From Deltaproteobacteria bacterium (GTDB taxonomy: Bacteria; SAR324; NAC60-12), in assembly GCA_038150265.1 (NCBI GenBank), contig JAYOTF010000035.1, positions 1 to 37,570 on the forward strand: a stretch of DNA of 37,570 nucleotides, written 5' to 3'. Below, piece after piece: positions 2,060-21,187 of this stretch. The translations under genes and the position numbers were made by a program. Each line of letters begins with the position of its first letter. Within the stretch, counting starts at the first letter, position 1. Below the pieces are notes generated by a model. That model was not told the DNA's origin. It ran no database searches and saw only the letters and a list, made by a program, of their open reading frames with translations.

Positions 2060-2067
2060 AAGCAGGG

Positions 2068-2955: not shown

Positions 2956-2957
2956 GC

Positions 2958-4323: not shown

Positions 4324-4369
4324 TTTGCTTGCGACCTGAGCCTGGTTATGGCACCCTATTACTCAGTTT

Positions 4370-4550: not shown

Positions 4551-4600
4551 TTTCTTCCTGCCTCAGTTCTCTACCCTTCTCCACTTACGTTTCCAAGCGG

Positions 4601-6771: not shown

Positions 6772-7016
6772 CGCGACTGGAACTGGAAGCCCTGCTGCGC
6801 ACCGCGCTTGCCAAGGAAATGGACCTCGACCCAGCCTCCATCCACCCGGAGGACCACCTCAAGGACCTTGATGTCGGCTCGCTGGATGCGGTCAACCTGT
6901 TGATGACCCTTGAAGACGAACTGGGCATTGAGGTGGACCTCGAGGACTTTCTGGAGCTTCAGACCGTTGCTCAGTTGCTCGACTTTCTGGAGCAGAAGCT
7001 CCCGTCGGCGTCCTGA
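6768..7016 (+). CDS. acyl carrier protein
   Basis: 82-aa acidic protein from ATG 6768 (ATGA overlap). DLDVGSLDAVNLLMTLEDELGI contains the phosphopantetheine Ser; TVAQLLD helix. Confidence 0.9.
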   Translation: MTRLELEALLRTALAKEMDLDPASIHPEDHLKDLDVGSLDAVNLLMTLEDELGIEVDLEDFLELQTVAQLLDFLEQKLPSAS

Positions 7017-8062
7017 TGCCGCGCATCCTCGCCGTCGCCAGCGGCTTTCCGGAACACTACTACACGCAGCAGCAACTCAGCGCCGCCTTGCGGGAGGTCT
7101 GGCAGCAGCAGCAGCTTGATGTCGCCGTCTTTGACCGGGTCCAAAAGAGTGTCACGGTGTCCGGACGGCACCTGGCGCTGCCCATGGACCGCTACCGGGC
7201 CCTCGACTTTGAGGCAGCCAACCAGGCGTGGCTCGAGACGGCTCTGAGCCTCGGCGAGCAGGTGCTTGGGCGGCTGTTTGCCCAGTCCGGAATGGCGCCA
7301 GACGAGGTGTCGCTGTTTGCCTCGACCACCGTCACGGGCATTGCCGTTCCGTCGCTGGAGGCCCGCCTGATGAACCGCCTGGCCTTCCGTCCGGACACCA
7401 AGCGGATGCCGCTGTTTGGACTCGGGTGCCTTGCCGGAACCGCTGGGGTTGCGCGGCTGCACGACTACCTCCTTGGGCACCCGCGAGACGCCGCCATTTT
7501 GCTGTCCGTGGAGCTCTGCTCCCTCACCCTCCAGCTGGGAGACCTCTCGGTCGCGAACCTCATTTCCAGCGGCTTGTTTGGCGATGGCGCGGCGGCCGTG
7601 CTGATGGTGGGAGACGAGCACCCGCTGGCTGCCGGTCCGGAAACCGTTGCCAGCCGCTCCTGGTTCTTCCCCGATTCCGAAGGCGTGATGGGCTGGGACA
7701 TCACCAACCGGGGCCTCAAGATTGTCCTCAGCCCAGGGGTTCCCGAGTACGCCCGGCAGGTCCGGCCCATTGCCGATCAGCTGCTCAGCGAGCAGGGGCT
7801 GACCCTGGCAGACATCGGAGCCTGGGTCACGCATCCGGGGGGGCCGAAAGTGATTGATGCCCTCGAAGACGCCTTTGCTCTGCCATCCGGAACACTGGAC
7901 CACGTCCGCCAGAACCTCCAGCAAAACGGCAACCTGTCTTCATCGTCTGTTCTTTTGCTGCTGGAGCAGGCCCTGCAGACGCCGCCTTCCACGCCTCACG
8001 GCCTGATGCTGTCGATGGGCCCGGCGTTTTCGGCAGAACTCCTCTTGCTCCGGTGGCCATGA
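7016..8062 (+). CDS. type III polyketide synthase (chalcone synthase-like, BpsA/SrsA type)
   Basis: Cys-His-Asn triad in GLGCLAG, THPGGPKVI and GNLSSSSV. Also VELCSL, LFGDGAAA and MGPAF. Confidence 0.93.
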   Translation: MPRILAVASGFPEHYYTQQQLSAALREVWQQQQLDVAVFDRVQKSVTVSGRHLALPMDRYRALDFEAANQAWLETALSLGEQVLGRLFAQSGMAPDEVSLFASTTVTGIAVPSLEARLMNRLAFRPDTKRMPLFGLGCLAGTAGVARLHDYLLGHPRDAAILLSVELCSLTLQLGDLSVANLISSGLFGDGAAAVLMVGDEHPLAAGPETVASRSWFFPDSEGVMGWDITNRGLKIVLSPGVPEYARQVRPIADQLLSEQGLTLADIGAWVTHPGGPKVIDALEDAFALPSGTLDHVRQNLQQNGNLSSSSVLLLLEQALQTPPSTPHGLMLSMGPAFSAELLLLRWP

Positions 8063-8607
8063 ATCTGGAACTGCTCGGCTTCACCATCCTCGTCGGAGCC
8101 ATTGGCATCCAGCGCGTCAACGAGCTGGTTCAAAGTCGCAGCAACGAAGCGCGGATGCGCGAGCGTGGTGGCTACGAAGTCGCCCCGGAGCACTACCCCA
8201 TCATGGTCGGCCTGCATGCCTCGTGGTTTGCCGCCATGCTGCTGGAAGCGTGGCTCCTGCGGAAGCAGGCGCCGGACAGCACCATTTACTACCCGGCCCT
8301 GGCTGGACTGGCCATTGGGTTGGCGCTGCGCCGTTACGCCATGCGGACCCTGGGAGACCGCTGGAGTACCCGCATCTTCATTGTCCCCAAAGAGGCCCCC
8401 ATCCGGACCGGCCTCTATGGAACGCTCCGGCACCCGAATTACCTCGGGGTCGTGATTGAGCTGGCCAGCGTCCCTCTGCTTTACAACGCCTGGATCACGT
8501 CGGTTGTCTGGTCGGTTGCGAATTTGTTCCTCTTGCGGCATCGTATCCGTTTGGAAGAAGCTGCTCTGCAGCAATCCCTGGCACCCTCACCGCGCTCGCC
8601 GTCATGA
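8059..8607 (+). CDS. isoprenylcysteine carboxyl methyltransferase family membrane protein (BpsB/SrsB-like polyketide methyltransferase)
   Basis: 182-aa hydrophobic protein. QRVNEL..SRSNE, GGYE..PEHYP, LGDRWSTRI, GLYGTLRHPNY, RIRLEE. Coupled to the type III PKS by an ATGA overlap. Confidence 0.9.
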   Translation: MNLELLGFTILVGAIGIQRVNELVQSRSNEARMRERGGYEVAPEHYPIMVGLHASWFAAMLLEAWLLRKQAPDSTIYYPALAGLAIGLALRRYAMRTLGDRWSTRIFIVPKEAPIRTGLYGTLRHPNYLGVVIELASVPLLYNAWITSVVWSVANLFLLRHRIRLEEAALQQSLAPSPRSPS

Positions 8608-9281
8608 CTGCTCGATCTGCCATTCTGGGCCGGCTCCGTTCTGGCCAGACTTCGTCTCCCGCGTTGCCCCTCGATGACCAGGTCATCCGGGCCCGACAGT
8701 GGTCTCCCCCCGAACGCGTCACGCGCCTCCGGGAAGCAATGGAGGCGGTGCACACGGAGCTGGTAGAGTGCAAACCCCGCGGATTCGGAGCCCTGTTTCG
8801 GCAGGTCTGCGCCCGGAAGCAGATCCGCCGCCTGCTGGTCGGCCCGGGAACCGACCTGATGCAGCAGGTCCGTGGCTTCAGGAAACGAACGCCCGAAACG
8901 GTTCCGGAACTGGTTCCGTATGCCGAGCCGGTTGAGTCCACCAAGGACTTGCTCTTCACCATTGACGCGTCCCTGACGAGCGTTCGCTCTGCCATTGCCG
9001 ACACCGGCTCACTCATCCTCTGGCCCACGCCCCAGGAACCCCGGCTGATGTCCCTGGTGCCTCCCATTCACCTCGCCGTCCTCCGGGCCTCAACGATTCA
9101 CAACACCTTCCTGGAAGCCATGGAAGCCGAACAGTGGAGCGAAGGCTTGCCCACCAACGCCCTGCTCATCTCCGGGCCCTCCAAAACCGCTGACATTGAG
9201 CAGATGCTGGTCTATGGCATCCATGGTCCCAAGGAGCTGGTGGTGTTTGTCGTGAACGACCTGGCAGAGGCTGGGCTGTAG
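8604..9281 (+). CDS. lutC: LUD-domain lactate utilization protein C family
   Basis: AIADTGSL, RLMSLVPPIH, LISGPSKTADIEQMLVYGIHGPKEL. Confidence 0.88.
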   Translation: MTARSAILGRLRSGQTSSPALPLDDQVIRARQWSPPERVTRLREAMEAVHTELVECKPRGFGALFRQVCARKQIRRLLVGPGTDLMQQVRGFRKRTPETVPELVPYAEPVESTKDLLFTIDASLTSVRSAIADTGSLILWPTPQEPRLMSLVPPIHLAVLRASTIHNTFLEAMEAEQWSEGLPTNALLISGPSKTADIEQMLVYGIHGPKELVVFVVNDLAEAGL

Positions 9282-9388
9282 CGATCCGTTACAACAATTT
9301 CTGTCTCGGGTTGTTAGGATTTCAAGAAACCGCCCCTGTTTCCAGAACCCCAGAGGGGCTGGGTTACTGATTTCGAAAGAGAAAAGAG

Positions 9389-9859
9389 ATGGGACAAGAC
9401 ACCAATTGGCAAGACGAGTTTACTCCGGGTGAGTGGAAAACCCTCCAGCTCGCTCCCTTTTGGATCTCCACCGCAGTGGCAGGAGCCGACCAGTTCATTG
9501 ACGATGCCGAAGGCCGGGCCCTCAGCGAACAGCTGGCCCACTGGAAGAAGGTCCAGGACCCCCTTGCCCGTGAGTTGCTGGGGTCCATCTTTACAGACCT
9601 GAAAGCCGTCTCCACGCGCTTCCGGGCCGCAACCCACACCGAAAAAGCCATGGCGCAGCTCCGGGAGGTGGCGTCCCTGCTGGACCAGAAGGTTTCGGCC
9701 GAACAGGCCCGGGCCGTGAAGCAGGAGTTCCTCAAGGTGGGAAAGGCGACTGCCGAGGCGTCCGGAGGGGGCTTCCTGGGACTCGGGGACAAGGTCAGTC
9801 CAGAAGAACGGAGCATGCTCAGCCAGATCGAAACCGTCCTTGGCCTCAGTACGCTCTGA
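9389..9859 (+). CDS. conserved hypothetical protein (possibly TerB-like helical fold)
   Basis: 156 aa with a purine-rich RBS. AVAGADQFIDDAE and C-terminal AEASGGGFLGLGDKVSPEE pattern. The fold call is inference. Confidence 0.7.
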   Translation: MGQDTNWQDEFTPGEWKTLQLAPFWISTAVAGADQFIDDAEGRALSEQLAHWKKVQDPLARELLGSIFTDLKAVSTRFRAATHTEKAMAQLREVASLLDQKVSAEQARAVKQEFLKVGKATAEASGGGFLGLGDKVSPEERSMLSQIETVLGLSTL

Positions 9860-9941
9860 ACGCCGTGAGGCGGGCCTTGTTCTTGCTGGGCATGAAGGGG
9901 TGCCCCGCCTCGGGCACGAGGACCCGAACCAGAGCGATTGC

Positions 9942-10346
9942 TTGACACGTCACACAACACACCGTTCCACACAACCCCTTTGGTGGGGACTCGCCCTGCT
10001 CCTGGGAGCCTGCAGCGCCCCGGCACCGCCTCCGACTGCAGCGTACCCGACTGAGCAGGCCCTGCGGGTCCGGGAAGTCTGCTCCACGCTGTTCACCGGA
10101 GAGTGGTGGGGCTACTTCTCTCCCTCACGGAAATCCGCCCTCCGGAGCTTTCAACCGATTCCGGGAGGACTGGTTGCTCGCTTTGCTGATGGACGCCGCT
10201 ATGAGGTTCCCTTTCAGACAGGCCTGCCTCCGGAAACCTACACCTGCCACACCTCGGAAACCGTCACCCCCTGCGCCTCGCGACGAGACTGGGATCAGCG
10301 GTGCGAGTTCGACCCCAACCGGCAGATCCCTCGCATGCGCTACTGA
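9942..10346 (+). CDS. hypothetical Cys-containing lipoprotein
   Basis: In-frame TTG 9942 gives MTRHTTHRSTQPLWWGLALLLGAC, a lipobox LGA-C followed by a Pro/Ala linker. Start is uncertain; the ORF track starts at 9840, overlapping the upstream gene. Confidence 0.6.
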   Translation: MTRHTTHRSTQPLWWGLALLLGACSAPAPPPTAAYPTEQALRVREVCSTLFTGEWWGYFSPSRKSALRSFQPIPGGLVARFADGRRYEVPFQTGLPPETYTCHTSETVTPCASRRDWDQRCEFDPNRQIPRMRY

Positions 10347-10364
10347 GCAGGAGGTCCCGTGGAG

Positions 10365-10877
10365 ATGAAGCACCTCAGTGACCGGGCTCGGCGACTGATT
10401 CAGCTCCGTCCGGAAACCATGCGGGCCATTGACGAGGCGCTGGAACGTGGAACCGTCCCCTGCGTCAAGTGCCGCGAAGAGATCCCGCTGGGCGTCCGGG
10501 TCTGTCCCCAGTGTGGGCACGAGTTCCGTCCCCCTTGGTGGAAACAACGCTGGTTGCTGTACTGCGCCCTCACCTTTCCTACCCTCCTCGTGGTGGCCTT
10601 CGGCGCCCTCTGGTGGCTCAACCGCCTCCCCACCTGCAGCTCTCCGGATGCTCAGCTCAAGCTTGCCGAGGCCTTCCGTTTTTCTGACTTTCCAGACCAG
10701 CTTGGGGGGCTTCCCCGAGACATGCTCTACATCCGGGAGCATCCCGATGAGGCGCCTCCGGAAACCCGCCTGTGCTACGGCGTCATGCTCCTTTCCAATG
10801 ACCAGGAGATCGACCTCGACTACCAACTCGTCCGGGACGAATCGGGGTTCCTCCAGGTGACGTTTTCCCTCAAGTAA
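10365..10877 (+). CDS. zinc-ribbon membrane protein
   Basis: CVKC...CPQCG zinc ribbon, one TM helix, C-terminal domain with two Cys. AGGAGG RBS at ~10349-10354. Alternative start GTG 10359. Confidence 0.75.
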   Translation: MKHLSDRARRLIQLRPETMRAIDEALERGTVPCVKCREEIPLGVRVCPQCGHEFRPPWWKQRWLLYCALTFPTLLVVAFGALWWLNRLPTCSSPDAQLKLAEAFRFSDFPDQLGGLPRDMLYIREHPDEAPPETRLCYGVMLLSNDQEIDLDYQLVRDESGFLQVTFSLK

Positions 10878-10943
10878 GCACCCAGCTGCGGCTTTCGTTT
10901 TCAGGCCCTTCGCCCACACGCTCCTCTCGGTGGGCCGGGCCTT

Positions 10944-10964
10944 AAGCGACGAATTTTGTCGCTT
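10944..10964. promoter_or_regulatory. putative WYL-regulator operator, box 1
   Basis: Perfect inverted repeat AAGCGAC-GAATTTT-GTCGCTT in intergenic DNA. Two further copies lie at 11156 and 17887. Confidence 0.6.
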
Positions 10965-11155
10965 TTACGGAGGCATTGCCTCTCACCAGCAGATCACTTC
11001 CCATCCACTTCCCCCTCCAGGAGCCCTCCTCTTTCACGAAACGGTTCGGCTCCTAAAAATCTGAAATCAAATTTTTTATCTCCCCTTTTTCACTCTCAAG
11101 CGCCTCAAAATCCAGAAGGCTCCGGAGGGTCCGTCAAAAACGAGTCATCTCTCAA

Positions 11156-11190
11156 AAGCGACGCAATTTGTCGCATCAATGGGCGATACT
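11156..11190 (+). promoter_or_regulatory. putative WYL-regulator operator, box 2, with -10-like element for the AAA operon
   Basis: AAGCGAC-GCAATTT-GTCGCAT, then TGTCGC-N10-GATACT (11185-11190), about 150 bp upstream of the AAA gene. Confidence 0.68.
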
Positions 11191-11336
11191 AGAGGCTGTT
11201 CTGGTTACGGTTTCGAGCAACTCAGAGCCCCTTGCCGGCGTCCTCAACGGTTCCCTTGCCGGGGTTCCGGAGACACCGGTTTCGGCAGTTCCGTGTGCTC
11301 GGGAGCCCAGCTTTCCTCCTCAAACGAGATCGAGTG

Positions 11337-12338
11337 ATGACCCCCAAGAAGTTAAGCCGCGCCTTGAGCCAGTTGGCTCGCCACCGGGAATCCAGCAGTC
11401 TGATGATCTGGGGACCTCCCGGGGTCGGAAAATCCAGCCTCGTTGCTCAGGTGGCGGAAGAGCAGGAACTCGAACTGGTCGATGTCCGCCTCAGCCAGCT
11501 GGCACCGACGGATCTGCGTGGGTTGCCCGTCGCTGAGCAGGGAGTTTCCACGTGGTACCCACCGGAGTTCCTGCCTCGGTGCGGGAGGGGCATTTTGTTT
11601 CTCGATGAATTGAACATGGCGACTCCAGCCGTGCAGGGCGTTGCCCAGCAGTTGGTTTTGGACCGCAAGGTTGGGAACTATACGGTGCCGGAGGGTTGGA
11701 TGATCTGGGCGGCGGGGAACCGCCGGGAAGATCAGGCCTCGGTGTTTCAGATGCCCGCGCCCCTGGCCAACCGCTTCCTGCACTTTACGGTGGAACCGAG
11801 CCTGAAGGATTTTCGGGAGTATGGCCGGAAGGTCGGCCTGCATGAGCGGCTGTTGGCGTTCCTGGCCTTCCGCCCGGAGTTGCTGCACCGCCTGGATGCA
11901 CAGCAGCCCGCCTGGCCGTCTCCACGAACCTGGGAGTTGGCCCACCGCCTCTTGCAGGCAGACCTTCCGGTTCATGCTGCTGTGGGAGATGCCGCTGCAG
12001 GTGAGTTTGAGGCGTTTGTTCAGGTGTACGCCTCGCTTCCCAACTGGCAAAAGATCCTTGCCGGGATTCCGGGCGAAGCGTTTCCGGAAAATCCCGGCGC
12101 TCGCTTTGCGCTCATCACCAGCTTGGCCCACCACTGCCAAACCGTGGAGCAAGCCGTGAACACGGCCGTGTGGCTGACGGAAAACGCGCCCCATGAGTGG
12201 GGTCAGCTCTTCTTCAAGGAGCTGATGCCCGCCTTGCGTCAGCAGCAGCTGACGGCAGCGTTCAGTCGGAAATTCCTCGCCACTCCCGAGCTGCGCGGCT
12301 TTCTCAAGGAGTTCAAGAACCTGATGGAGGCGGCATGA
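11337..12338 (+). CDS. MoxR-like AAA+ ATPase
   Basis: 333 aa from ATG 11337. Walker A WGPPGVGKS, DVRLSQ..PTDLRGLP, Walker B LFLDELN, sensor AAGN, PLANRF, WPSPRTW. Confidence 0.9.
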   Translation: MTPKKLSRALSQLARHRESSSLMIWGPPGVGKSSLVAQVAEEQELELVDVRLSQLAPTDLRGLPVAEQGVSTWYPPEFLPRCGRGILFLDELNMATPAVQGVAQQLVLDRKVGNYTVPEGWMIWAAGNRREDQASVFQMPAPLANRFLHFTVEPSLKDFREYGRKVGLHERLLAFLAFRPELLHRLDAQQPAWPSPRTWELAHRLLQADLPVHAAVGDAAAGEFEAFVQVYASLPNWQKILAGIPGEAFPENPGARFALITSLAHHCQTVEQAVNTAVWLTENAPHEWGQLFFKELMPALRQQQLTAAFSRKFLATPELRGFLKEFKNLMEAA

Positions 12339-13486
12339 CCCCGGAAGCGAACGCAAGCTCCTCTGAAGCAGCAGAGGCCCCCCTGCGTCGGCGCATTCAG
12401 GCAGCCCAACTGCGGATCCGGACAGCCATGCCCTTTTTTGGCACGCTCCTGCTGTTTGCACGCTGGGAGATCACCCGGAGCCTTTCCACAGCCGCCACGG
12501 ATGGCCAGACCATTCAGATCAATCCGGACTTTGCCGCAGGGCTGAAGGCTCCCGAACTGGACGCCGTGCTGCTCCACGAAGTCCTGCATGCGGCCCTGCA
12601 GCACCCCTCACGTCGCAAGCGCCGAGACCCCGTCCGCTGGAATTTCGCTGCCGATGTTGTGGTCAATGGCATGATCCAGTCCCTCCCCGAGTTCAAGCTG
12701 CCCTCCAACGCGATCCGGAAACGAGACCTGGAGCACCTGTCTGTGGAGGAGGTTTACGAAAAATTGGAGCTTCCTCCGGACTGGAAACAGCAGCTGGCAG
12801 ACTGGGGAGACTTGCTGGACGCCGGCGACAGGCAAGACGAGATGGAAGAGCCGGAAACCGCCCACTACTGGAAAATGGCCCTCCAGCAGGCAGAAGTTTT
12901 GGCACTCTCTCATCCGCAGAAAAAATGGCCGGCGGGCCTCACACGCGAGCTGGGGGCTCTCCGTCCGGGGACCCTCGACTGGCGCAGCTACCTGCGACGC
13001 TTTCTTGTGCAGACGCCCGTGGATTTCCAGGGGTTCGACCGACGCTTCATCGGGCGTCAGCTTTACCTGGACGCACTGGAAGGAGAATCGCTCACCGTGT
13101 CCATCTGCATCGATACCAGCGGTTCCATCACCTCAGACGAGCAAGCCCGACTGCTGGGGGAAGTGCAGAACCTGATGCAGCAGTACCCTCATCTTTCAGC
13201 CGAGTTGTTTTATGCCGATGACCATCTGTATGGGCCATGGTCGCTGAATGCAGAGAGCCCGCTTCGCAAACCGATTGGCGGAGGCGGAACGTCCTTTCGT
13301 CCCTTTTTTCAGCACCTGAACCGGAATGCAGCGGTCCGGAGCCCCCAGGTGGCCATTTACCTGACCGACGGATGGGGAAGTTTTCCACAAAAGCCTCCGG
13401 AGGTTCCCACTCTGTGGGTGGTGTCTTCCGGAGGCCTCAACGAGAAAGGCTTCCCGTTTGGAGAAGTCGTGAGAATGGGGGCCTAA
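12335..13486 (+). CDS. HExxH metallopeptidase-like domain plus VWA-like domain protein (DUF2201 type)
   Basis: 383 aa from ATG 12335 (ATGA overlap, GGAGG RBS). TAATDG, LLHEVLH, WNFAAD; MIDAS-type DTSGS, GGGGTSF, YLTDGWG. Confidence 0.88.
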   Translation: MTPEANASSSEAAEAPLRRRIQAAQLRIRTAMPFFGTLLLFARWEITRSLSTAATDGQTIQINPDFAAGLKAPELDAVLLHEVLHAALQHPSRRKRRDPVRWNFAADVVVNGMIQSLPEFKLPSNAIRKRDLEHLSVEEVYEKLELPPDWKQQLADWGDLLDAGDRQDEMEEPETAHYWKMALQQAEVLALSHPQKKWPAGLTRELGALRPGTLDWRSYLRRFLVQTPVDFQGFDRRFIGRQLYLDALEGESLTVSICIDTSGSITSDEQARLLGEVQNLMQQYPHLSAELFYADDHLYGPWSLNAESPLRKPIGGGGTSFRPFFQHLNRNAAVRSPQVAIYLTDGWGSFPQKPPEVPTLWVVSSGGLNEKGFPFGEVVRMGA

Positions 13487-13646
13487 CCCATTTCCAGATG
13501 TTCCCCCCTTCTCCTCCTCCATGAGGTCGGTAAGGGGGCCTTGGCACACGCCGTCAGGTCACTCACGTGACACCAGCGACCGTGTGCTTCCTTCATCAGG
13601 CGGTCGTTGCGCCTGTTTTCTTTTTCGCTCACTCAAGGAGATTCCC

Positions 13647-13967
13647 ATGTCAATCCGCAGTTCCATCAAGAGGCTTTCAGAAGTGCTCCAGATCCTTCAG
13701 CAGTATGAAAATCACACGCCTCCGCCTGTGGAGATCGGTTTTTACCGGACCTTCAACAACAGCATCGTCTACATCTCCGAGATCGACCACGATCACGATG
13801 GACGGGCCGTGATTCTTTCCGGGGGAATCGATAACCATACCCCGGGAGACAGCTACTGGATCGTAGATGGGTACCACCGGGAGACCGACATCGGATCGCA
13901 CCTGGTGCTGGGGGTTGCCGAAAAACTGGACCTCACCCTCCCGGAATTCCCCACCCCAAGCACCTGA
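13647..13967 (+). CDS. small hypothetical protein, paralogue A
   Basis: 106 aa, AAGGAG RBS before ATG 13647. Clearly homologous to the next ORF. Confidence 0.8.
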   Translation: MSIRSSIKRLSEVLQILQQYENHTPPPVEIGFYRTFNNSIVYISEIDHDHDGRAVILSGGIDNHTPGDSYWIVDGYHRETDIGSHLVLGVAEKLDLTLPEFPTPST

Positions 13968-14004
13968 GCCAGACCATGCAAGTGACGTTAGCCGAGAGGG
14001 AAAG

Positions 14005-14358
14005 ATGAGCCCTCAACAGGAAAGAGCGGCTCGCTTCCGGAGCAATCTGGCAGAGATGAAGCGGCTCGTTGCACGCCTGGAGCCCTTTGCCCACCACACG
14101 CCTCCGTTGCCTCAGGTCGGGGGGCTCTACCGGACTCTGAATGACAGTACCGTTTACGTTTCCCGGCACATCAAGAAGGCGTTCTCACAGAACCAGGTTG
14201 AGGTGGTCCTTCTGGTGGGGGAGGGGCCCGGACTCGAGCCGGGAGACCCATACGTTCTCAACGATGATGGGACGCACCCGGACCGAGAGCCCGGCGAGCA
14301 CCTGCTTTTGGGGTTGGCGGAGCTGCTGGACGTGGACACCGATCCGGAGCCTCCCTAA
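14005..14358 (+). CDS. small hypothetical protein, paralogue B
   Basis: 117 aa, GAGGG RBS before ATG 14005. Shares HTPP, YRT.N.S.VY.S, PGD.Y, DG.H and G.HL.LG.AE.LD with paralogue A. Confidence 0.8.
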   Translation: MSPQQERAARFRSNLAEMKRLVARLEPFAHHTPPLPQVGGLYRTLNDSTVYVSRHIKKAFSQNQVEVVLLVGEGPGLEPGDPYVLNDDGTHPDREPGEHLLLGLAELLDVDTDPEPP

Positions 14359-14362
14359 GCGC

Positions 14363-15370
14363 TCAGGGAAACTCGGGCTGGTAGAGTGCCAGCACTCGCC
14401 TCGCTTCCTGCCGCAACTCTTCTCTCAAAAACTCAGGCTCCAGCACCTCTACGCTGGAGCCATACCCACGCAGCCACCAGCGCAGTTGCTGGAGGTCTCG
14501 CACTTCCGCTTCCACGAGCCAGGAGTTGCCTTCGGAATGGATCACCTGTTGTTCGCTCAGCCGCACTTCCTGCAGGTGCGCCGCCGTATCAGCATCCGTC
14601 CGCAGCTTCAGTTTCAGGGTGCGGTCACTGCTGCGGTAGTTGAACACGCCACTGTCGAGGTAGTCCTGGAGCCCCGTATAAGGCTCCGGCCACTCGAGCG
14701 GCTGTTCCGTCAGCTCTGCTGTTGAAATCCGATTGACCGGAAGCCGAACCACGTAGTCTCTTCCGGGAAACGCGCCCACCAGGTAGTTGAGATGCCCGAA
14801 CCAGACCAGTCCCAATGGGCTGATCTGGTAGGACTGAGGCTCGGTCGCGCCCCGTTTGAGGTAGGAGATTTTCACCTGCTGCTCCTGCAGAAGCCCTTCG
14901 GAGAGGATGCCCATGACCTCAGGATCCAGTTTGGGCGCCAGCAGAGGCAGTCCGGGTGGCACCACCGCCACCTTGTCCATCCATGAGTTCATCCCGTTGT
15001 GACTCGCCTGCCGCAAAATCTCTCGAGCTCGATCAAAGTGCTGCTGCAGCGAGTCGTAGGTGCTTCTGGGGAGCAAATTGGCCAGAAAGCGCTCAATCAT
15101 CCCAAAGGTCAGGGCCGTCCGGACATCCATTGCCGGCAGCTCCAGAGCCTTTGCCTCCGACGTCCAGCACCACCCCCGAGGCTTGTGTTCGTCACCCACC
15201 AGGGGAAAGATTCTTGACAGCTGCAGAATGTCGCGTTCCAGAGTCCGGCGGGTGCTCGTGAACCCCCGCTCGTGCAGACGCTGCTCCAGCTCCGCCAGGG
15301 TCGTCTTGCGTGGCGTCCGTGGCACCAGCTCCAGCATCTTCAGTTGTCGTAAAAGCGTGTCAGACATCAT
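14363..15370 (-). CDS. HTH-WYL-WCX transcriptional regulator
   Basis: N-terminal wHTH (LAELEQRL...TRRTLERDILQL), WYL core (ISYLKRG...ISPLGLV...NYLVG...RLPVNRI), C-terminal WCX (LRWWLRGYGSSVEVLEPEFLREEL). Confidence 0.92.
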   Translation of the reverse strand: MMSDTLLRQLKMLELVPRTPRKTTLAELEQRLHERGFTSTRRTLERDILQLSRIFPLVGDEHKPRGWCWTSEAKALELPAMDVRTALTFGMIERFLANLLPRSTYDSLQQHFDRAREILRQASHNGMNSWMDKVAVVPPGLPLLAPKLDPEVMGILSEGLLQEQQVKISYLKRGATEPQSYQISPLGLVWFGHLNYLVGAFPGRDYVVRLPVNRISTAELTEQPLEWPEPYTGLQDYLDSGVFNYRSSDRTLKLKLRTDADTAAHLQEVRLSEQQVIHSEGNSWLVEAEVRDLQQLRWWLRGYGSSVEVLEPEFLREELRQEARRVLALYQPEFP

Positions 15371-15408
15371 CTTGAGGGAAGGCAGGGTGAAAGGAACTCC
15401 GGGGCAGG

Positions 15409-16359
15409 CTAGGATGACGGCTCACACCGATCCACCCAGACAAACGCCTGATCCGTTAAGGACGCCTCACTTGACCAGCGGTAGGCGACCAGCTTTCCGT
15501 TTGCCCGAGCCACGCTGTAGTCGACACAGGCGACGTTCCGGGCCAGCAGCCGCGGAGGGCCCGTCATCCAGTAGTGTCCGAGGAAGACCGGAGGTTGGTC
15601 TGAACCGTAGCCCAGCTGATGACGGGACTGCATCGGCCTCTCCGGAAGCTGCGCCCGCTCCTGTTCCGGCCCCATGAAGGCGGCTCGGTACGTCGTCGCA
15701 GCTTCATCCCACCAGCGCACCCGGATGTGATCTCGCGCGTGGCCATACGGATCCGTAAAGGTGACCCCTTCAGGCAAAGCAACCTCCTTGCCCTTCAGGA
15801 GCACCTCCAGGGCCTCAAACTCCGGACGGCCTGCCGTGAACACGGGCGTGAGCAGAGCCTCCGAAAGCCGGTTTCCCGGTGCCAGGGCGTGATGGCTCTG
15901 CAGCTGAGCCTGACATGCTTCATCCCAGCACGCATGAATCAGGCGGAAGCCTTCCAACTCGAGCCAGAGCGGCAACGTCTTGAACCACTCGAGCGCGCGC
16001 TGATGCTCCTCGGAGCCCAGGGGGAACTCGTTGAGAAAACGCTGATGCTGCCTGGTATTTTTGTCCAGATGCGGCCGGAGGTACTGCCCTTCGGGACCTG
16101 GAGTACCGTAGCCAATGGCATTGAGTTCGTGATTGCCCATCACGGCAACCGCCGCCCCTTGCTCCACCATCGGCTGAACCAGCTCCAGCACCTCCCGCTG
16201 CCCGGGGCCGTCTCCGTCAATGAAGTCTCCCAGAAAGGCCGCTGTTCGGCTCGCATGCCGAAGCACCCCCTGAGCATCGGGCTGGTAGCCCAGCTGGTCC
16301 AAAAGCGCTTTCAGGCTCTGCGCGCAGCCATGAATGTCTCCAATGATGTCGTAGGGCAT
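15409..16359 (-). CDS. calcineurin-like metallophosphoesterase
   Basis: 316 aa from ATG 16359. IIGDIHG, FLGDFID, MGNHE, LIHACW, FLGHYW, CVDYS. Confidence 0.9.
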   Translation of the reverse strand: MPYDIIGDIHGCAQSLKALLDQLGYQPDAQGVLRHASRTAAFLGDFIDGDGPGQREVLELVQPMVEQGAAVAVMGNHELNAIGYGTPGPEGQYLRPHLDKNTRQHQRFLNEFPLGSEEHQRALEWFKTLPLWLELEGFRLIHACWDEACQAQLQSHHALAPGNRLSEALLTPVFTAGRPEFEALEVLLKGKEVALPEGVTFTDPYGHARDHIRVRWWDEAATTYRAAFMGPEQERAQLPERPMQSRHQLGYGSDQPPVFLGHYWMTGPPRLLARNVACVDYSVARANGKLVAYRWSSEASLTDQAFVWVDRCEPSS

Positions 16360-16494
16360 GCGGGTTTTCGTTGAGGAAGATGGAGGAAGCCACAAGGAGG
16401 TGAACCCACCGGAAGCCCCCTGGCTGACGGCCTTGGGGGGTGGTTTCAGCAGGAACCGATTCAGTTGTGTGGGCGAATCAGACCACAGTTTTCT

Positions 16495-17739
16495 TCAGTC
16501 GCGCAAGCCAAATCCCCCAAGCTGCCGCAACGTGCCATAGGCTCGGCTCAGGCGTCCGGCATCGGAGTCGGTTGTTCGCTCGCTGAGCGAGGCACGCCAG
16601 GAGTGGGGAAAGGCCGAGGCTCCATGGAGGGCTCCGAGCACCATCCCAACCAGGGCCGCAATGGTGTCATTGTCCCAGGTGTCGGTCACCGCTCGGACCA
16701 TCGCCTCCTCCGGGTCATCAAAGTGACACTCCAGGAGGTGCAGCACGGTGGGAACCGTTTCCAGAAGGTAGGCGCCCGAGTACCAGTGCTCCCCAGCACT
16801 TCGGATCGATTTTCCCTGCCTCAACGCCTGAGGCACCTGCTGTTCCACGAGGTCACACAGGGACCCCTGAAACGCATTCCCCGGGACGCGAGAACGAAGC
16901 TGAGGGGCGCCTTCCAACGGGCGAGCCGTCTCAACAAACGTCTCCCAGAAAAACCCGGGTCGAGCAAAATCAGGATTCTGGAGGAGGAGCCCCAGGATGC
17001 GGGCAAAGGCCACACACGAGGCCGTCGAAGTCGGATCGTCATGCGTGAGGGCGCTCGCAACCGCAACCGCCTCCAGGGCGTGCGCGTCCAGGGTCCAGGC
17101 ATGAGGAAGCAACGCTCCCGCGACCCTCATCAGCGCGCCATTGCCAGCGCTGAACTGCCGGGCCTCCCAGGGATCTGCTCCAGGTCCCAGTTGATCCAGC
17201 TTCCGGAAGAAACCCCGCAGGGTTCCCCCTATCCCATACAGCCGATGCTGGCGAAACGCCTGCGCCAGGGCCCCAGGATCGGGCCACCCGTGCTCCAGCA
17301 AGGTTTCCAGAGTCCAGACCGTGAGTTGCGTGTCATCACTGGGCAGCCCCAGGCGCTCACCGTGGGCATGGCGGTTGGGCAGGTAGCCACGGATTTCACC
17401 ATAACGAGAGCGGCGCTCGGAGGGACGCAACGACTCTGATGTGTTGCCCAGCGCATCTCCAATGGCGACTCCCCAAAGCGCCCCCTTCACCCGGTCGGCT
17501 GGCAAGGGGCCGCCCCCTAAGCGCCCTCCGGGAAGCAAGGCAGGCGGCAGAGCCTCCAGACGAATCCTTCCGGACGCCAGCAAGCCTTCCAGCTGCTCAT
17601 GAACACGTTGCTGCATCTCGGCCAGGGAACCCGCATAAACAGGATCCTGATAACGAAAGGGGCGACGGGCAATCCAACCTCCCACGCCGGCGGATAACCC
17701 TGTCTCTGTGAAACGAGGATGAGTTGAGGCATCAGGCAT
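16495..17739 (-). CDS. ADP-ribosylglycohydrolase (ARH/DraG family)
   Basis: 414 aa from ATG 17739 with AAGGAG RBS. GALWGVAIGDALG, PSDDTQLT, SAGNGALMR, SALTH, WDNDTIAALVG. Confidence 0.9.
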   Translation of the reverse strand: MPDASTHPRFTETGLSAGVGGWIARRPFRYQDPVYAGSLAEMQQRVHEQLEGLLASGRIRLEALPPALLPGGRLGGGPLPADRVKGALWGVAIGDALGNTSESLRPSERRSRYGEIRGYLPNRHAHGERLGLPSDDTQLTVWTLETLLEHGWPDPGALAQAFRQHRLYGIGGTLRGFFRKLDQLGPGADPWEARQFSAGNGALMRVAGALLPHAWTLDAHALEAVAVASALTHDDPTSTASCVAFARILGLLLQNPDFARPGFFWETFVETARPLEGAPQLRSRVPGNAFQGSLCDLVEQQVPQALRQGKSIRSAGEHWYSGAYLLETVPTVLHLLECHFDDPEEAMVRAVTDTWDNDTIAALVGMVLGALHGASAFPHSWRASLSERTTDSDAGRLSRAYGTLRQLGGFGLRD

Positions 17740-17872
17740 CAAGGATCTCCTTGCTTGATTGTGAAGAAAGAGTTCTTGCGGCAGAATGAGTGGACCGCGA
17801 GCCGGTCGCTGCAAGCACGGTTGGGGGCTCCGGGGCGAAGCTCCAACAGAAGCCTCTCCCACCATGGATTCC

Positions 17873-17907
17873 AGTCTACCTGCGTCAAACGACAAGTAAT
17901 GTCGCAT
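17873..17907 (-). promoter_or_regulatory. putative WYL-regulator operator, box 3, with -10 element for the ARH arm
   Basis: Minus strand reads ATGCGAC-ATTACTT-GTCGTTT, then TGTCGT-N10-TAGACT (17878-17873). Same spacing as box 2; about 135 bp upstream of the ARH start. Confidence 0.7.
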
Positions 17908-18025
17908 CAAAAACGTTCGTGTCTTCCACCTTCATTGGGTGATCGTCTGCTCCCCTCTTCAGGAGCGACGGCGCTGCGTGTTTGCGGGCGGGCAGCACGG
18001 CACGGCCTCCTGAACCGGCCGCTTC

Positions 18026-18048
18026 TACAAACTGATACAAGCTGTTAC
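18026..18048. promoter_or_regulatory. 10-bp direct repeat, candidate OmpR/CpxR-family binding site
   Basis: TACAAACTGA-TACAAGCTGT-TAC; reverse strand GTAAC-N5-GTATC-N5-GTA. About 85 bp upstream of the response regulator. Confidence 0.5.
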
Positions 18049-18131
18049 TCGCCGGAGAGGCACCCTGGCCTCCGATCTCCTAAGCTGGTTTCATCGGCAC
18101 CATGCCTGCTTTCCACTCCAACAAGCTCTCC

Positions 18132-18827
18132 ATGAACACGCGAATCCTGATCATTGATGATGATGAGAAGCTCAACCAGCTTCTGCACACCTACCTGGGG
18201 AACAAGGGCTACGAGGTCTTTTCCCGGACCGACCCTCAGGAGGGCATCGCAGCCATTGCCCGAGAGCAGCCCCACCTCATCATTCTGGATGTGATGCTTC
18301 CGAAGATGGATGGGTTTGAAACCTGCCGGAAGATCCGGCAGCAGCACAACACCCCCGTCATCATGCTGACGGCCCGGGGAGAAACCATGGACCGGGTGGT
18401 CGGCTTGGAAACCGGCGCAGACGATTACATGCCGAAGCCCTTTGATCCGAGTGAATTGGTGGCTCGCATTGAGGCCGTGCTGCGGCGTGGACAGCACCGG
18501 GCGGTGCAGATGCGCAAGGAATTCGGAGGCCTCGCTGTGGACTTCCAGAAGCATCAGGCCATCCTGGATGGCGAACCCATCAACCTGACCACCATGGAGT
18601 TTGCCTGCCTGTCGCTGCTCATCCGACACGCCGGCGAAGTGCTCAACCGCGATCAGATCCTTGAGGAACTCCGGGGCATTGAGTGGGACGCCTTCAACCG
18701 CTCCGTGGACATCACCATGAGCCGGCTGCGGCAAAAGCTGAAGGATGACCCGAAGACCCCTCGGTTCATCAAGACTATCTGGGGCACAGGCTACATGTTC
18801 ATTGGCGTTGAAGGAGATGGGGCTTAA
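18132..18827 (+). CDS. OmpR/CpxR-family response regulator
   Basis: ILIIDDD, LDVMLP (phospho-Asp), MLTARG, GADDYMPKPF, wHTH RSVDITMSRLRQKL...IKTIWGTGY. Confidence 0.95.
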   Translation: MNTRILIIDDDEKLNQLLHTYLGNKGYEVFSRTDPQEGIAAIAREQPHLIILDVMLPKMDGFETCRKIRQQHNTPVIMLTARGETMDRVVGLETGADDYMPKPFDPSELVARIEAVLRRGQHRAVQMRKEFGGLAVDFQKHQAILDGEPINLTTMEFACLSLLIRHAGEVLNRDQILEELRGIEWDAFNRSVDITMSRLRQKLKDDPKTPRFIKTIWGTGYMFIGVEGDGA

Positions 18828-20163
18828 GAAACTCGGGCGCCCCCTGCGGTCGGTCTTCACCAAGCTCCTGCTGGTGATGGGGAGCATGGGCCTGCTGCTT
18901 TACATGGGCATTGGCGGAGTCTACTGGCACGTGATTGGCGAATCGCGGCTGCAGGTGTACCAGGAGAACGCGGTCAAGTACACCGACTACCTCATCCGCG
19001 AACTCGGCTCGCCCCCCAGTCACAAACGCGCCCAGGACATCACTCAAGAGACCGGACTCGGCATCCGCTTCATTGAAAACGGCCCAGGCTGGACCACCAG
19101 CGAACTCGTCCCGCTTCCGGAGTCGCTTCACTCGTGGCGCTGGCGAGAAAACAATGGCGTCCAGTTTGCCCGTCGCTACAACAAGATGATCGTGGTCCGG
19201 GACACGCCGGAGGGAAAGTTCCTCTTCAGCGCCTTTCCGGATGAGACGATGATGATGGGCTGGCTGGTCACCCTCATGGTGGTGGTCGGACTGGTCCTCT
19301 TTGGCGCCTTTGTCACCATTCGCTGGATCCTGCGTCCGCTCCGCGACCTTGCCCGGGGGGTCCGGGCCATCAGCGCCGGAGACCTGACTTACCGGGTGCC
19401 TGAATACCGGACCGACGAGTTGGGACGCCTGACCCGGGCCTTCAACCACATGTCGGGCCGGATCCAGATGATGCTCGCGGCCCGGGAGCGCCTGCTGCTT
19501 GATGTCAGCCACGAGTTGCGGTCTCCGCTCACCCGCATCAAGGTGGCCCTGGAGTTTTTACCACCGGACGACACCCGTTCCCTGCTGCGCAACGACGTGG
19601 AGGAAATGGAGCGGATGATCACTGAAATTCTGGAAAATGCCCGCCTGCACAGTCGCTTCGGACGCCTGAACAAGACCCACTTTGACCTCCGGGAGTTGCT
19701 GGAGGAGATGCTTCCGGAATACGACGGCCGGGCTCCGGGCGTGCGTCTGGCTCACTTCCCGGATCAGGTACCGCTCTTCGCGGACCCGGAACAGGTCAGC
19801 ACCGTGATGCGCAACCTCATCACCAACGCCCTCAAGTACACGCCGGCGGACTCGGCTCCTGTTGAAATCAGTGTCGAGTCTCAGCCACTGCAGACGGTCA
19901 TTCATGTCCGGGACTTTGGGCAGGGCATTGCCAAGGATGAGCTGGAGCTGATCTTTGAGCCGTTCTACCGCACCGACCGGTCCCGCAACAAGAACACCGG
20001 CGGTTACGGCCTGGGCCTCAGCCTCTGCAAGGCGATCATGGAGGCTCATGAGGGCTCCATTGCCGTCAACAGCGTGGTCAATGCCGGAACCATTTTCACC
20101 CTGAACTTCCCGCAGCATCCTGAGGATAAACTGGAAAAGAATCTTCCTGCTCCGGCCGCCTGA
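18817..20163 (+). CDS. HAMP-containing sensor histidine kinase
   Basis: AAGGAG RBS and ATG 18817. Two TM helices, HAMP (DELGRLTRAFNHM), H-box VSHELRSPL, N box NALKY, DFGQG, GGYGLGL. Confidence 0.95.
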   Translation: MGLKKLGRPLRSVFTKLLLVMGSMGLLLYMGIGGVYWHVIGESRLQVYQENAVKYTDYLIRELGSPPSHKRAQDITQETGLGIRFIENGPGWTTSELVPLPESLHSWRWRENNGVQFARRYNKMIVVRDTPEGKFLFSAFPDETMMMGWLVTLMVVVGLVLFGAFVTIRWILRPLRDLARGVRAISAGDLTYRVPEYRTDELGRLTRAFNHMSGRIQMMLAARERLLLDVSHELRSPLTRIKVALEFLPPDDTRSLLRNDVEEMERMITEILENARLHSRFGRLNKTHFDLRELLEEMLPEYDGRAPGVRLAHFPDQVPLFADPEQVSTVMRNLITNALKYTPADSAPVEISVESQPLQTVIHVRDFGQGIAKDELELIFEPFYRTDRSRNKNTGGYGLGLSLCKAIMEAHEGSIAVNSVVNAGTIFTLNFPQHPEDKLEKNLPAPAA

Positions 20164-20191
20164 TCTGTTTCCGAAGCCCTGAGCGACTCTT

Positions 20192-21187
20192 ATGAAATCT
20201 CTGCTTTCTCTCCGCCTCTGGTCCCCGCTTCTGCTCCTGGCTGTAGGGGGTGCGCTGACGTTCTGGTTGATGCAAACGCCTCCCATGGCGGAAAAGAAGG
20301 CGACTCCCTTCAAGGGGGTCCTCGTCTCAACGCTCACCGCCGAACCCACCTCCACTCGCATCCTGCTGGAAACCTCCGGACAGGTCCGGGCGGCTCAGCG
20401 GGTCCAGCTGACCAGTCGCATGGCCGGGAACATCTCGGCGCTCGGGCCTCACTTTGAAGAAGGCCGCTACTTCCAGAAGAACGAGACCCTGGTCCGGATT
20501 GACCCACTCACCGGAAATGCTCGGGACCAGATCCTCCTCAAGGCGCCGTTTGATGGGGTGGTCCAGAGCCGTGCCGCCGACCTGGGGCAATACGTCACCC
20601 CGGGAACGCAGCTGGCGGTGCTGGTTGGAACCGACCAGGTGGAAGTTCTTGTCGACCTTCCCCTCAGCCGCCTGGATGACCTCGTGCTGGATCAGCCGGG
20701 GCCGCCTGCCGAGGTGCGCCTGCAGATTGGGGAGCGTGAGGTGCGCTGGACCGCACAGGTCAAGCACCTGCTTCCGGAACTCACGCCACAGGGACGCATG
20801 GCCCGCATGGTCCTCGCGGTAGATGACCCCTTCCGGCGCCAGAACCCCGGCGGGCCTCCGCTTTTCGTCGGCGCCTTTGTACAGGTCACCCTTCCGGGGC
20901 GGATGCTCGAGCAGGTCATCCGCATTCCGGCCCAGGCGCTCCGGGACTTCAACACCGTCTGGATCGCTTCGTCAGCATCAGAGCTGGAACGTCGAGAGGT
21001 CACCATTGCCCACCAGGACCGCGACTCCGTGTACCTTTCCCAAGGGGTGGAAGCCGGAGAGCGCATCATCCTCTCTCCGCTCAAGGGGGCAGCCGATGGC
21101 CTGAAGCTCCGGATTGAAGGCGAGGGCGAGGCCCCTTCAGAGACCTCAAAGCTTCCGGAAGCGCCTGTTGTTGAGGAGCGCTCATGA
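20192..21187 (+). CDS. RND periplasmic adaptor (membrane fusion protein), alpha-hairpin apparently missing
   Basis: N-terminal TM anchor. Lipoyl halves SRMAGNI...LVRIDP and LKAPFDGVV...LGQYV are separated by only ~10 aa. LFVGAFV, IPAQAL, GVEAGERII. Confidence 0.88.
   Translation: MKSLLSLRLWSPLLLLAVGGALTFWLMQTPPMAEKKATPFKGVLVSTLTAEPTSTRILLETSGQVRAAQRVQLTSRMAGNISALGPHFEEGRYFQKNETLVRIDPLTGNARDQILLKAPFDGVVQSRAADLGQYVTPGTQLAVLVGTDQVEVLVDLPLSRLDDLVLDQPGPPAEVRLQIGEREVRWTAQVKHLLPELTPQGRMARMVLAVDDPFRRQNPGGPPLFVGAFVQVTLPGRMLEQVIRIPAQALRDFNTVWIASSASELERREVTIAHQDRDSVYLSQGVEAGERIILSPLKGAADGLKLRIEGEGEAPSETSKLPEAPVVEERS

Follow-up and report, generated by a model that had tools for sequence, protein, structure and literature searches.

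A stretch of 37,570 nucleotides from a SAR324 bacterium (GenBank assembly GCA_038150265.1, contig JAYOTF010000035.1), referred to here at its full length as the window, holds an accessory island of about 7.1 kb that is probably a horizontally acquired, self-contained regulon of a WYL transcription activator of the DriD/DdaA type. The island comprises seven genes in two convergent arms and three copies of a palindromic box; its gene content, its extent as one indel, its boxes and its promoter layout are read directly from the DNA. The genes were identified by Pfam and NCBIfam scans of the open reading frames (ORFs), with several start codons corrected. Their cargo is a mosaic and not one machine, and the island itself is a one-off mosaic. 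A sequence-only reading of the same DNA had described two convergent arms with seven named genes, meeting 4 bp apart. All seven are present, and the arms end at the stop codons TAA 14356-14358 and TCA 14363-14365, with 4 bp between them. The features, with coordinates in the window, strand and the basis of each assignment, are as follows.

10877..18013, no strand: accessory island, about 7.1 kb, with the seven genes and the three boxes
10946..10962, no strand: box 1, GCGACGAATTTTGTCGC, distal box of the DriD/DdaA type, flanked on neither side by a -10-like hexamer
11158..11174, + strand: box 2, GCGACGCAATTTGTCGC, where the activator is predicted to act on the + arm promoter
11185..11190, + strand: -10-like hexamer GATACT, 10 nt past box 2
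11337..12338, + strand: AAA_5 (MoxR/midasin-like) ATPase, 333 aa (Pfam AAA_5, motifs, PHROG, PDB)
12335..13486, + strand: zincin-like metallopeptidase (HEVLH) with vWA domain (MIDAS motif DTSGS), 383 aa (Pfam, fold, PHROG)
13597..13625, + strand: terminator-like hairpin with T tract, separating the peptidase-vWA gene from the first of the small genes
13647..13967, + strand: small paralogue A, 106 aa, of a rare family with no Pfam model
14005..14358, + strand: small paralogue B, 117 aa, modelled as an N-terminal helix and SH3/Tudor-like barrel
14363..15370, - strand: WYL-WCX regulator, DriD/DdaA type, 335 aa (Pfam, PDB, clade alignment)
15409..16359, - strand: PPP-type metallophosphoesterase, 316 aa (Pfam, NCBIfam, motifs, PDB)
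16495..17739, - strand: ADP-ribosylglycohydrolase (ARH; DraG/ARH3/Tri1-like), 414 aa (Pfam, PDB, motifs)
17873..17878, - strand: -10-like hexamer TAGACT (- strand reading), 10 nt past box 3
17889..17905, - strand: box 3, ACGACAAGTAATGTCGC, where the activator is predicted to act on the - arm promoter

The boxes share the core of the DriD box, CGAC-N7-GTCG, which is described in PMC12392091 alongside the DdaA box, CGWCA-N5-TGWCG. Exactly three such cores were found in the 37.6-kb window (at 10947, 11159 and 17890), all of them intergenic and confined to about 500 bp of DNA at the arm heads; a search of the internal intergenic gaps with up to 2 mismatches allowed gave no further box. The claim that the same palindrome heads each arm was confirmed with one refinement: boxes 1 and 2, at a distance of 212 bp, both belong to the + arm, and box 3 alone to the - arm. 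Three cores compare with 0.83 expected in the window, and the 3.39-Mb genome holds 52 CGAC-N7-GTCG sites. The spacing to a -10-like hexamer that is typical of the regulator's clade was seen at boxes 2 and 3 only, pointing into the + arm and the - arm, respectively, and the + arm promoter lacks a -35 consensus because box 2 occupies that position. Genome-wide, 22 sites resemble the full 17-mer and 4 of them have a hexamer at offset 10; an AT-rich spacer together with a -10-like hexamer occurs only at boxes 2 and 3. Since these two are the only convincing promoters of this kind in the genome, the island looks self-contained.

The same layout was examined around relatives of the regulator, using the best 80 of 474 confirmed metagenome loci (675 kb). 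These contain 113 box cores, spread over 63 of the 80 loci, an approximately 9-fold enrichment over Markov-1 simulations (about 13 expected, with a maximum of 22 in 20 runs). The clade consensus is TGCGACA-N5-TGTCGCA, and the three boxes in the window fit it. Where enough upstream sequence was available, a box lay within 300 bp of the WYL start in 34 of 73 loci. A NANNNT hexamer, with the consensus [T/C]ATA[A/C]T, stands exactly 10 nt from the 17-mer at 71 of the 93 boxes of these relatives (64 on one side, 7 on both), so that offset 10 is occupied in 78 of 186 flanks vs roughly 12 for each other offset. This footprint is the predicted operator of the regulator's clade, and by its position it takes the place of the -35 element in promoters that have no -35 of their own. 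DriD promoters are described in PMC13004042, with cryo-EM, as having a box near -35, a constant distance to the -10 and no good -35, and it is on the likeness to this layout that the regulator is read as an activator. Common WYL control of both arms, proposed earlier from the DNA alone, is well supported as a prediction by the box match, the enrichment, the 10-nt hexamer spacing and the presence of the whole block as a single indel.

Two further observations concern the box sequences. At 30798-30814, 13 kb away, a sequence differs from the 17-mer at 1 position (GCGATGCTCCCAGTCGC); it has a GC-rich spacer, does not belong to the box-plus-hexamer sites and is probably due to chance. The 195 bp between boxes 1 and 2 (10963-11157) are partly AT-rich and overlap a doubtful 78-codon ORF with a TTG start (10956-11192) that has no family match; strain variants from other metagenome runs fall in this interval at 11094, 11114 and 11148.

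The extent of the island was determined by DNA searches of two congeneric genomes. In one of them (G002), a single contig carries both sequences that flank the island (window positions 5000-10876 and 18014-24000) with about 50 bp between them, so the seven genes and three boxes form a single indel. Contigs from metagenome run X3 span both island borders (10343-10941 and 15195-18155), and the convergent junction is spanned by contigs of runs X1, X3 and X5, which belong to three coded studies, X1 being possibly the sample behind the window's assembly. Given these border and junction contigs, the gene arrangement is not an assembly artefact. A joint spanning the island, as expected of an island-less allele, was not seen in four metagenome runs, which does not imply that such an allele is absent. 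The GC content of the island (0.57-0.63 per kb) does not depart from that of the genome (0.612).

Each of the seven island proteins is single-copy within the window's genome. Homologues of the regulator occur in neither of the two congeneric genomes and in 8 of 41 relatives searched, the window's own genome included. Across 88 species genomes of the phylum, the phosphoesterase family is present in 4, DUF2201 (the family of the peptidase-vWA protein) in 6, and the small-protein family in 1, namely the window's own. The window's genome has ATPase/DUF2201 genes in the island only at E <= 1e-5, and both congeneric genomes carry a divergent ATPase/DUF2201 pair outside the island position (G001, contig C55, L203:7128-9325; G002, contig C69, L204:501-2665). 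These pairs are 40-42% (ATPase) and 28-30% (DUF2201) identical to those of the island and have no DriD-type box.

The regulator matches the Pfam families WYL (E 6.7e-10, residues 152-219) and WCX (E 5.9e-17, residues 251-327), both above cut-offs. Its N-terminus gave no Pfam helix-turn-helix match; PADLOC model PDLC01457 aligns to residues 6-314, and the N-terminal 70 residues are the best-conserved stretch of the clade alignment. In the PDB, at E <= 0.001, its only solved sequence relatives are 7tzv, 7u02, 9cu3, 9pfq and 8tp8 (E 4e-10 to 2e-9), all DriD entries (PMC13004042), and the match is limited to the WYL-WCX part. The NYL motif is kept, as is an arginine aligned to DriD Arg204, which is one of the residues reported to contact single-stranded DNA (ssDNA) in DriD, namely Tyr168, Ser172, Arg178, Tyr192, Lys202, Arg204 and Trp206 (PMC9186387). 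By homology to DriD, a damage-type (ssDNA) signal is plausible, and activator mode is suggested on the same footing. The regulator gene stands third in the - arm, behind gaps of 135 bp (ARH to phosphoesterase) and 38 bp (phosphoesterase to WYL), so the regulator is probably self-activating too, and 19 of the 76 box-promoters among its relatives, aimed at the WYL gene, agree with this.

Close relatives of this protein are few. The best among 5.8 billion proteins is only 40% identical; a scan of genome contigs for close copies of the island, with the regulator alone, found no relative, and tblastn at E <= 1e-4 gave no second homologue in the window's genome. A 40%-identical WYL relative in the same family (locus L017, genome G008, contig C225) heads an operon on the - strand at 765-7868 that encodes an AddB-like PD-(D/E)XK protein and an AddA-like UvrD-nuclease, with two GmrSD-type restriction genes nearby (10544-13872). 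The DNA of this locus is AT-rich, and no CGAC-N7-GTCG box is present in the 117-bp upstream gap.

The genes that surround the regulator's relatives were then compared with the island. Neighbourhood clustering at the 80 best loci gave two-ring, Cdc48-like AAA ATPases (15/80), DUF2779 proteins (13), members of a 5'-nucleotidase family (6), UvrD-PD-(D/E)XK helicase-nucleases (4), and also DnaB, RNase T, SIR2, PIN and FtsZ/FtsA-like proteins. Genes for the ATPase, DUF2201 and the small family were found at none of the 80. The first ORF behind each directional box-promoter gave 76 pairs. In 19 of these the promoter is aimed at the WYL gene itself; these and 17 duplicates or short ORFs were left out, and the remaining 40 were scanned by Pfam. 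A family was assigned to 16 of the 40 and none to 24. Five were AAA ATPases, and single cases were DUF2779, RNase T, a DarT1-associated NADAR protein, the phosphoesterase family (L128), a YAcAr SLOG domain, a WapI-like protein, DnaB, SIR2, a PD-(D/E)XK protein, a DnaA-like ATPase and an ADP-ribosylglycohydrolase (L161).

Details of three of these loci, and of one plasmid, are as follows. At L128 a 50%-identical phosphoesterase gene is divergent from the WYL gene with the box in between, and at L161 the ARH gene is the first behind the box-promoter. On a Marinobacter plasmid, a same-clade regulator of 37% identity is accompanied by a phosphoesterase gene (44% identical) that has a box immediately upstream, and an SOS-response-associated peptidase gene lies nearby. 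At L122, boxes lie at 1756 and 1804, and the box-promoter that diverges from the WYL gene has as its first gene the DarT1-associated NADAR antitoxin-like gene (E 1.1e-88; 1027-1701, - strand). For such regulators, an ARH or the phosphoesterase is genuine though occasional cargo, and AAA+ remodelling enzymes are often part of it; the particular MoxR/peptidase-vWA pair is a new recruit.

The regulator's family also raises the question of whether the island is an anti-phage defence island in which a BrxR/CapW-like WYL repressor silences a toxic ATPase/peptidase effector until infection. This we regard as unlikely. The island is accessory and patchy in distribution, BrxR and CapW are reported as WYL regulators of defence islands, a box at -35 could occlude RNA polymerase, MoxR-vWA-peptidase themes have been described in conflict systems (PMC7159879), DdaA-type regulators are described as controlling restriction-modification, CRISPR-Cas and Zorya systems (PMC12392091), and the G008 relative adjoins an AddAB-like helicase-nuclease with GmrSD genes nearby. 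However, a check against PADLOC-DB models, bearing on the proposal of a defence system, gave no matches for five of the seven proteins, WYL models on the regulator, and IetA matches that cover only the P-loop of the ATPase (<=24.6 bits). The only PDB matches of the regulator are to DriD, an activator; promoters of the clade have no -35 and hold the box at a fixed distance from the -10, like the activator-dependent DriD promoters; and the ATPase/peptidase pair is itself common in lytic phages.

The pair forms the head of the + arm. The ATPase scores 33.2 bits against Pfam AAA_5 (cut-off 22), has intact Walker A (GPPGVGKS) and Walker B (DELN) motifs, returned midasin as its sole PDB match and matches phrog_1297 over its full length (E 2.7e-82). 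Its start was placed at ATG 11337 and not at TTG 11232, because homologues start at the corresponding methionine and the first 35 codons of the long form are unmatched. The ATG of the peptidase-vWA gene overlaps the ATPase stop codon. This second protein matches DUF2201_N in its N-terminal part (1.7e-31) and DUF2201 in its C-terminal part (2.2e-16), and also phrog_1314 at full length (E 1.8e-67). The vWA fold was recovered with a Z score of 13.6 and an rmsd of 2.4 over 131 aligned residues. For the N-terminal peptidase domain the fold searches returned vWA matches throughout and no fold for this domain; the HExxH region has a weak SprT-like Pfam match below cut-off (E 0.0015), and no DNA-binding domain was detected in the protein. 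Its homologues number in the thousands, with at least 2989 at E <= 1e-10 among 8000 scored. A literature search on DUF2201/COG3864, judged by title and abstract, found no paper on function.

Gene neighbourhoods of DUF2201 were drawn from the best 80 of 483 confirmed genome loci (L021-L100, 1.31 Mb), mostly from cyanobacteria, Ktedonobacteria and Armatimonadota. The ATPase gene is directly upstream of the DUF2201 gene in 70 of the 80. A WYL gene of this clade, ARH and the small proteins are found at none of them, the phosphoesterase has a weak match at one, and no DriD-type box lies upstream of the pair (10 core matches in the 1.31 Mb, none so placed). In 53 of the 80 loci the ATPase gene comes after one for a repeat protein of roughly 480 aa that looks HEAT/LRV-like by eye, and in 23 the vWA gene is followed by one for a pentapeptide-repeat-like protein, which suggests that these are lineage-specific third components of the pair.

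With these two sets of loci, the view that the window holds an undescribed but conserved seven-gene system was not borne out. No WYL, ARH or small-protein gene accompanies the best DUF2201 loci, and no ATPase, DUF2201 or small-protein gene the best WYL loci. No description of the combination was found in the literature searched, the search not being exhaustive. What stands of the earlier interpretation is a regulon, now read as one of the DriD/DdaA type; a recurrent seven-gene system does not. The same absence of the two arms together elsewhere would fit two or three unrelated gene sets lying side by side, with the palindromes serving at most the - arm and the + arm boxes being chance occurrences or remnants. 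Box 1 has no promoter partner, and three or more cores arose anywhere in 5 of 100 shuffles of the window. We nevertheless consider a side-by-side arrangement very unlikely, because all three boxes fall within the intergenic DNA of the arm heads, boxes 2 and 3 have in common the extended consensus as well as a hexamer at exactly 10 nt, a combination that is convincing genome-wide only there, and the whole block is one indel.

The phage occurrences of the pair allow a further alternative, namely that the island is the remnant of a phage or other mobile element in which the pair is a chaperone for virion assembly or host takeover, and the ARH and phosphoesterase are counter-defence enzymes that degrade ADP-ribose or nucleotide signals. 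In favour of such a remnant are the full-length PHROG matches of both proteins, homologues of the pair in 198 phage records (N4-like phages, cyanophages, a Thermus phage and Bacillus phage G), a MoxR and peptidase-vWA pair described in jumbo phages (PMC7824862), and phosphoesterase and ARH homologues on conjugative plasmids and megaplasmids. The island itself, by the ORF list and Pfam, has no integrase, capsid, terminase or replication gene, and border repeats were looked for and none found (direct matches between the two ends of the island score 13 at best vs a shuffle mean of 14.8). Moreover, the closest homologues of the pair, from cyanobacteria, Ktedonobacteria and Armatimonadota, are chromosomal and 50-56% identical vs 27-33% for those of phages, and a scan of viral contigs for the small family found no member. 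An origin as a remnant thus seems distinctly improbable.

The two small proteins encoded downstream of the pair are paralogues, 36% identical over 113 aa (E 2e-11) and 40% identical in a MAFFT alignment, and some members of their family elsewhere are likewise tandem duplications. An exhaustive profile search of 1.84 billion proteins gave 47 representatives at E <= 0.001, and a word-index search with the small protein recovered only itself. In two proteins, P0160 (1146 aa) and P0169 (1108 aa), the small domain is the C-terminus of HerA/TraD-like ATPases (DUF87, TrwB_AAD_bind); these fusions hint that the domain works with NTPases. Paralogue B was modelled with a pLDDT of 94.6 as an N-terminal helix followed by an SH3/Tudor-like barrel. 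Foldseek returned no match to it at E <= 0.001, and the best VIA fold matches reached a Z score of 5.3 (the CarD N-terminal domain and a Tudor domain), so the model has a generic small-barrel likeness and nothing narrower. An ESM Atlas suggestion that the small protein is an SGNH/GDSL fragment (feature overlap 143/256) was rejected on account of this confident model. Many family members end in acidic tails, which might, as a speculation, serve as MIDAS ligands. A complex prediction of the peptidase-vWA protein with paralogue B scored 0.00 and carries no weight either way.

In the - arm, the ARH gene was assigned an in-frame ATG start with GGAG upstream. Its product scores 185.9 bits against Pfam PF03747 (cut-off 26.2, E 1.7e-54), and its acidic metal-binding motifs GDALG, SDDT and DNDT are all intact. 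The closest solved relatives are DraG (E 5.9e-19), ARH3 and Tri1, and the scores lie under the equivalog cut-offs of DraG (96.6 vs 337) and Tri1 (49.6 vs 490). An N-terminal extension of about 80 residues (1-80) lies outside the Pfam domain and is shared in part by a Rhodothermus plasmid homologue, the alignment to which starts at residue 35. The phosphoesterase retains its motifs DIHG, GDFIDG and GNHE and partially matches the Pnkp phosphatase domain, PrpE and ApaH, far under equivalog cut-offs; metallophosphoesterase chain 4j6o is its sole PDB match. The full kinase-phosphatase-ligase architecture of Pnkp is absent, the TIGR04075 match (77.4 bits vs a cut-off of 750) covering only residues 10-91, a part of the phosphatase domain, of the long 328-aa form of the ORF (15409-16395). 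Catalytic motifs are intact in all four enzymes of the island: Walker A/B, HExxH, MIDAS, and the phosphoesterase and ARH acidic motifs.

Homologues of both - arm enzymes occur on plasmids. On a Rhodothermus plasmid, an ARH gene with 47-49% identity faces a WYL gene from a different clade in convergent orientation, and on a Burkholderia plasmid a stretch of 5 kb brings together the phosphoesterase (49%), a Nudix gene and an ARH. Four other contexts of the phosphoesterase contained neither a WYL gene nor an ARH.

Outside the island, the right flank at 18102-20163 encodes an OmpR-type response regulator and a HAMP histidine kinase by family scans; the long ORFs at 20192-24327 are efflux-system-like by look, with no family-library scan behind this label. 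This flanking DNA is shared with the sister species and seemingly unrelated to the island. No RNA family was matched inside the island, and two matches of E ~0.5 lie outside it, at 10645-10767 and 18246-18322.

The regulon may be expected to work as follows. The regulator, encoded by the last gene of the - arm, would bind the promoter-proximal boxes 2 and 3 as a dimer, each bound box standing at the -35 position, 10 nt upstream of a -10-like hexamer; transcripts would then be expected to start near 11197 (+) and 17866 (-). Loading of the WYL domain with its signal, by homology ssDNA from DNA damage or from phage or plasmid replication, would recruit RNA polymerase and switch on both arms jointly, the regulator included, giving positive feedback. 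The MoxR-like AAA+ ATPase and the zincin-peptidase-vWA protein, the products of a widespread two-gene unit, would act on a protein target, remodelling and probably cleaving it, with the two Tudor/SH3-like proteins possibly as adaptors. The ARH would take off ADP-ribose, and the Pnkp/PrpE-like phosphoesterase terminal phosphate or nucleotide groups. Family chemistry alone suggests what this cargo acts on, and its putative role is damage- or infection-induced removal of adducts together with protein remodelling; induction by infection is possible because DdaA-type activators can drive defence genes too.

Several points weigh against a jointly controlled regulon. Joint activation of both arms is a prediction, and a repressor would be equally compatible with a box over the -35 position. 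No -10-like hexamer partners box 1. The ssDNA-contact residues of DriD are identical in the regulator at only 3 of 7 positions in a pairwise alignment (Y170, Y196 and R209), so its ligand could differ from that of DriD. Relatives of the regulator are rarely found with an ARH (1 of the 80 best loci) or a phosphoesterase (2 of 80). The pair is never beside a DriD-type box or this WYL clade at its own 80 best loci, and its position in the island may be a recent accident with no functional coupling. Within the arms, the 160-nt gap between the peptidase-vWA gene and the first small gene holds the terminator-like hairpin, so the small genes may lie outside the pair's transcript, and the 135-bp gap between the ARH and phosphoesterase genes could hold an internal promoter.

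The sequence-only reading had gone further and proposed a kit that reverses modifications. This idea is conjectural, although relatives of the regulator that drive NADAR, ARH, SIR2 and phosphoesterase-family genes may lend it some colour. In its most specific form, which the analogy to p97-SPRTN and the NADAR, ARH and SIR2 cargo of the relatives bring to mind but which we think has only a small chance of being right, the island would be a portable, ssDNA-triggered kit for the removal of adducts from nucleic acids (crosslinked proteins, ADP-ribose and blocked ends). The ATPase and the SprT-like peptidase-vWA protein, guided by the Tudor-like proteins, would extract and cleave proteins stuck or crosslinked to DNA, as a bacterial analogue of p97-SPRTN; the ARH would strip from DNA the ADP-ribose that DarT-type or phage enzymes add; and the Pnkp-like phosphoesterase would tidy the resulting 3' or 5' ends. 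On a wider view, regulators of the DriD/DdaA clade would serve generally to switch on mobile cassettes of repair and ADP-ribose reversal, among them the NADAR, ARH, SIR2 and Cdc48-like ATPase cargo of the relatives.

Read as a self-contained regulon of a DriD/DdaA-type activator, the island has wider implications. Descriptions of such activators have until now concerned chromosomal regulators of the damage response; in this case the sensor, two promoters and the cargo would travel on 7 kb, which suggests that damage-inducible modules can be exchanged ready-wired. The layout of TGCGACA-N5-TGTCGCA, 10 nt and a -10 could make the regulons of the clade readable from sequence alone, in uncultured bacteria included. 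These predicted regulons repeatedly include AAA+ unfoldases and enzymes of NAD/ADP-ribose chemistry, which would link both kinds of enzyme to an ssDNA-type sensor. The island is also a testable setting for two uncharacterised items, the DUF2201 ATPase/peptidase-vWA pair and the rare Tudor-like small family.

Compared with known systems, one likeness is to p97/Cdc48 with SPRTN/Wss1 in the repair of DNA-protein crosslinks in eukaryotes, as this repair has been described. Both combine an AAA+ unfoldase with a zincin-type peptidase, and in the island the pair is apparently wired to a sensor of the DNA-damage type. The likeness is an analogy only, since the island ATPase is of the MoxR and not the Cdc48 type and its peptidase has no detectable DNA-binding domain. 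With BrxR and CapW, as reported, the island shares a WYL-WCX regulator beside accessory cargo and an inverted-repeat operator at the cargo promoter, and CapW is reported to sense ssDNA too. Unlike these systems, it adjoins no defence system recognised by PADLOC, its regulator has no BrxR or CapW structure match at E <= 0.001, and its promoters are of the activator type. The jumbo-phage pair is described in PMC7824862 as a MoxR-vWA chaperone and co-chaperone with a fused metallopeptidase. The island pair is arranged in the same way, its AAA_5 ATPase gene overlapping a downstream gene for a vWA protein whose N-terminal domain is of the zincin kind (PMC7824862, PMC7159879). Elsewhere, however, the pair occurs alone or with repeat proteins and with no DriD-type box, whereas in the island it lies behind such a box and is followed by two small Tudor-like proteins.

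The regulator and its boxes also resemble DdaA and DriD. The motif of DdaA from Acinetobacter and other Moraxellaceae, CGWCA-N5-TGWCG, fits the clade consensus, and DdaA is described as activating damage-response and defence genes with a regulon that varies by lineage (PMC12392091). It is presented there as a global regulator that replaced LexA, whereas the island regulon apparently has two promoters; the island box is centred nearer -31, and the likeness is one of motif. DriD of Caulobacter crescentus is likewise a WYL-WCX regulator, with an N-terminal DNA-binding region to which the N-terminal part of the island protein is a candidate counterpart, and as described it has the same box core and the same box/-10 promoter layout as the island (PMC12392091, PMC13004042). 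The island regulator differs in that it matches DriD over the WYL-WCX part only (E ~1e-9 to 1e-10), with 4 of the 7 ssDNA-contact residues changed. DriD is described as not self-regulating (PMC13004042), whereas the island regulator sits inside an operon that it probably controls. The reported cargo of DriD is didA, bapE, recJ and dnaG, and that of the island the ATPase/peptidase-vWA pair, an ARH and a phosphoesterase. Finally, DriD governs a chromosomal network, whereas the island would be a mobile regulon of 7 kb.

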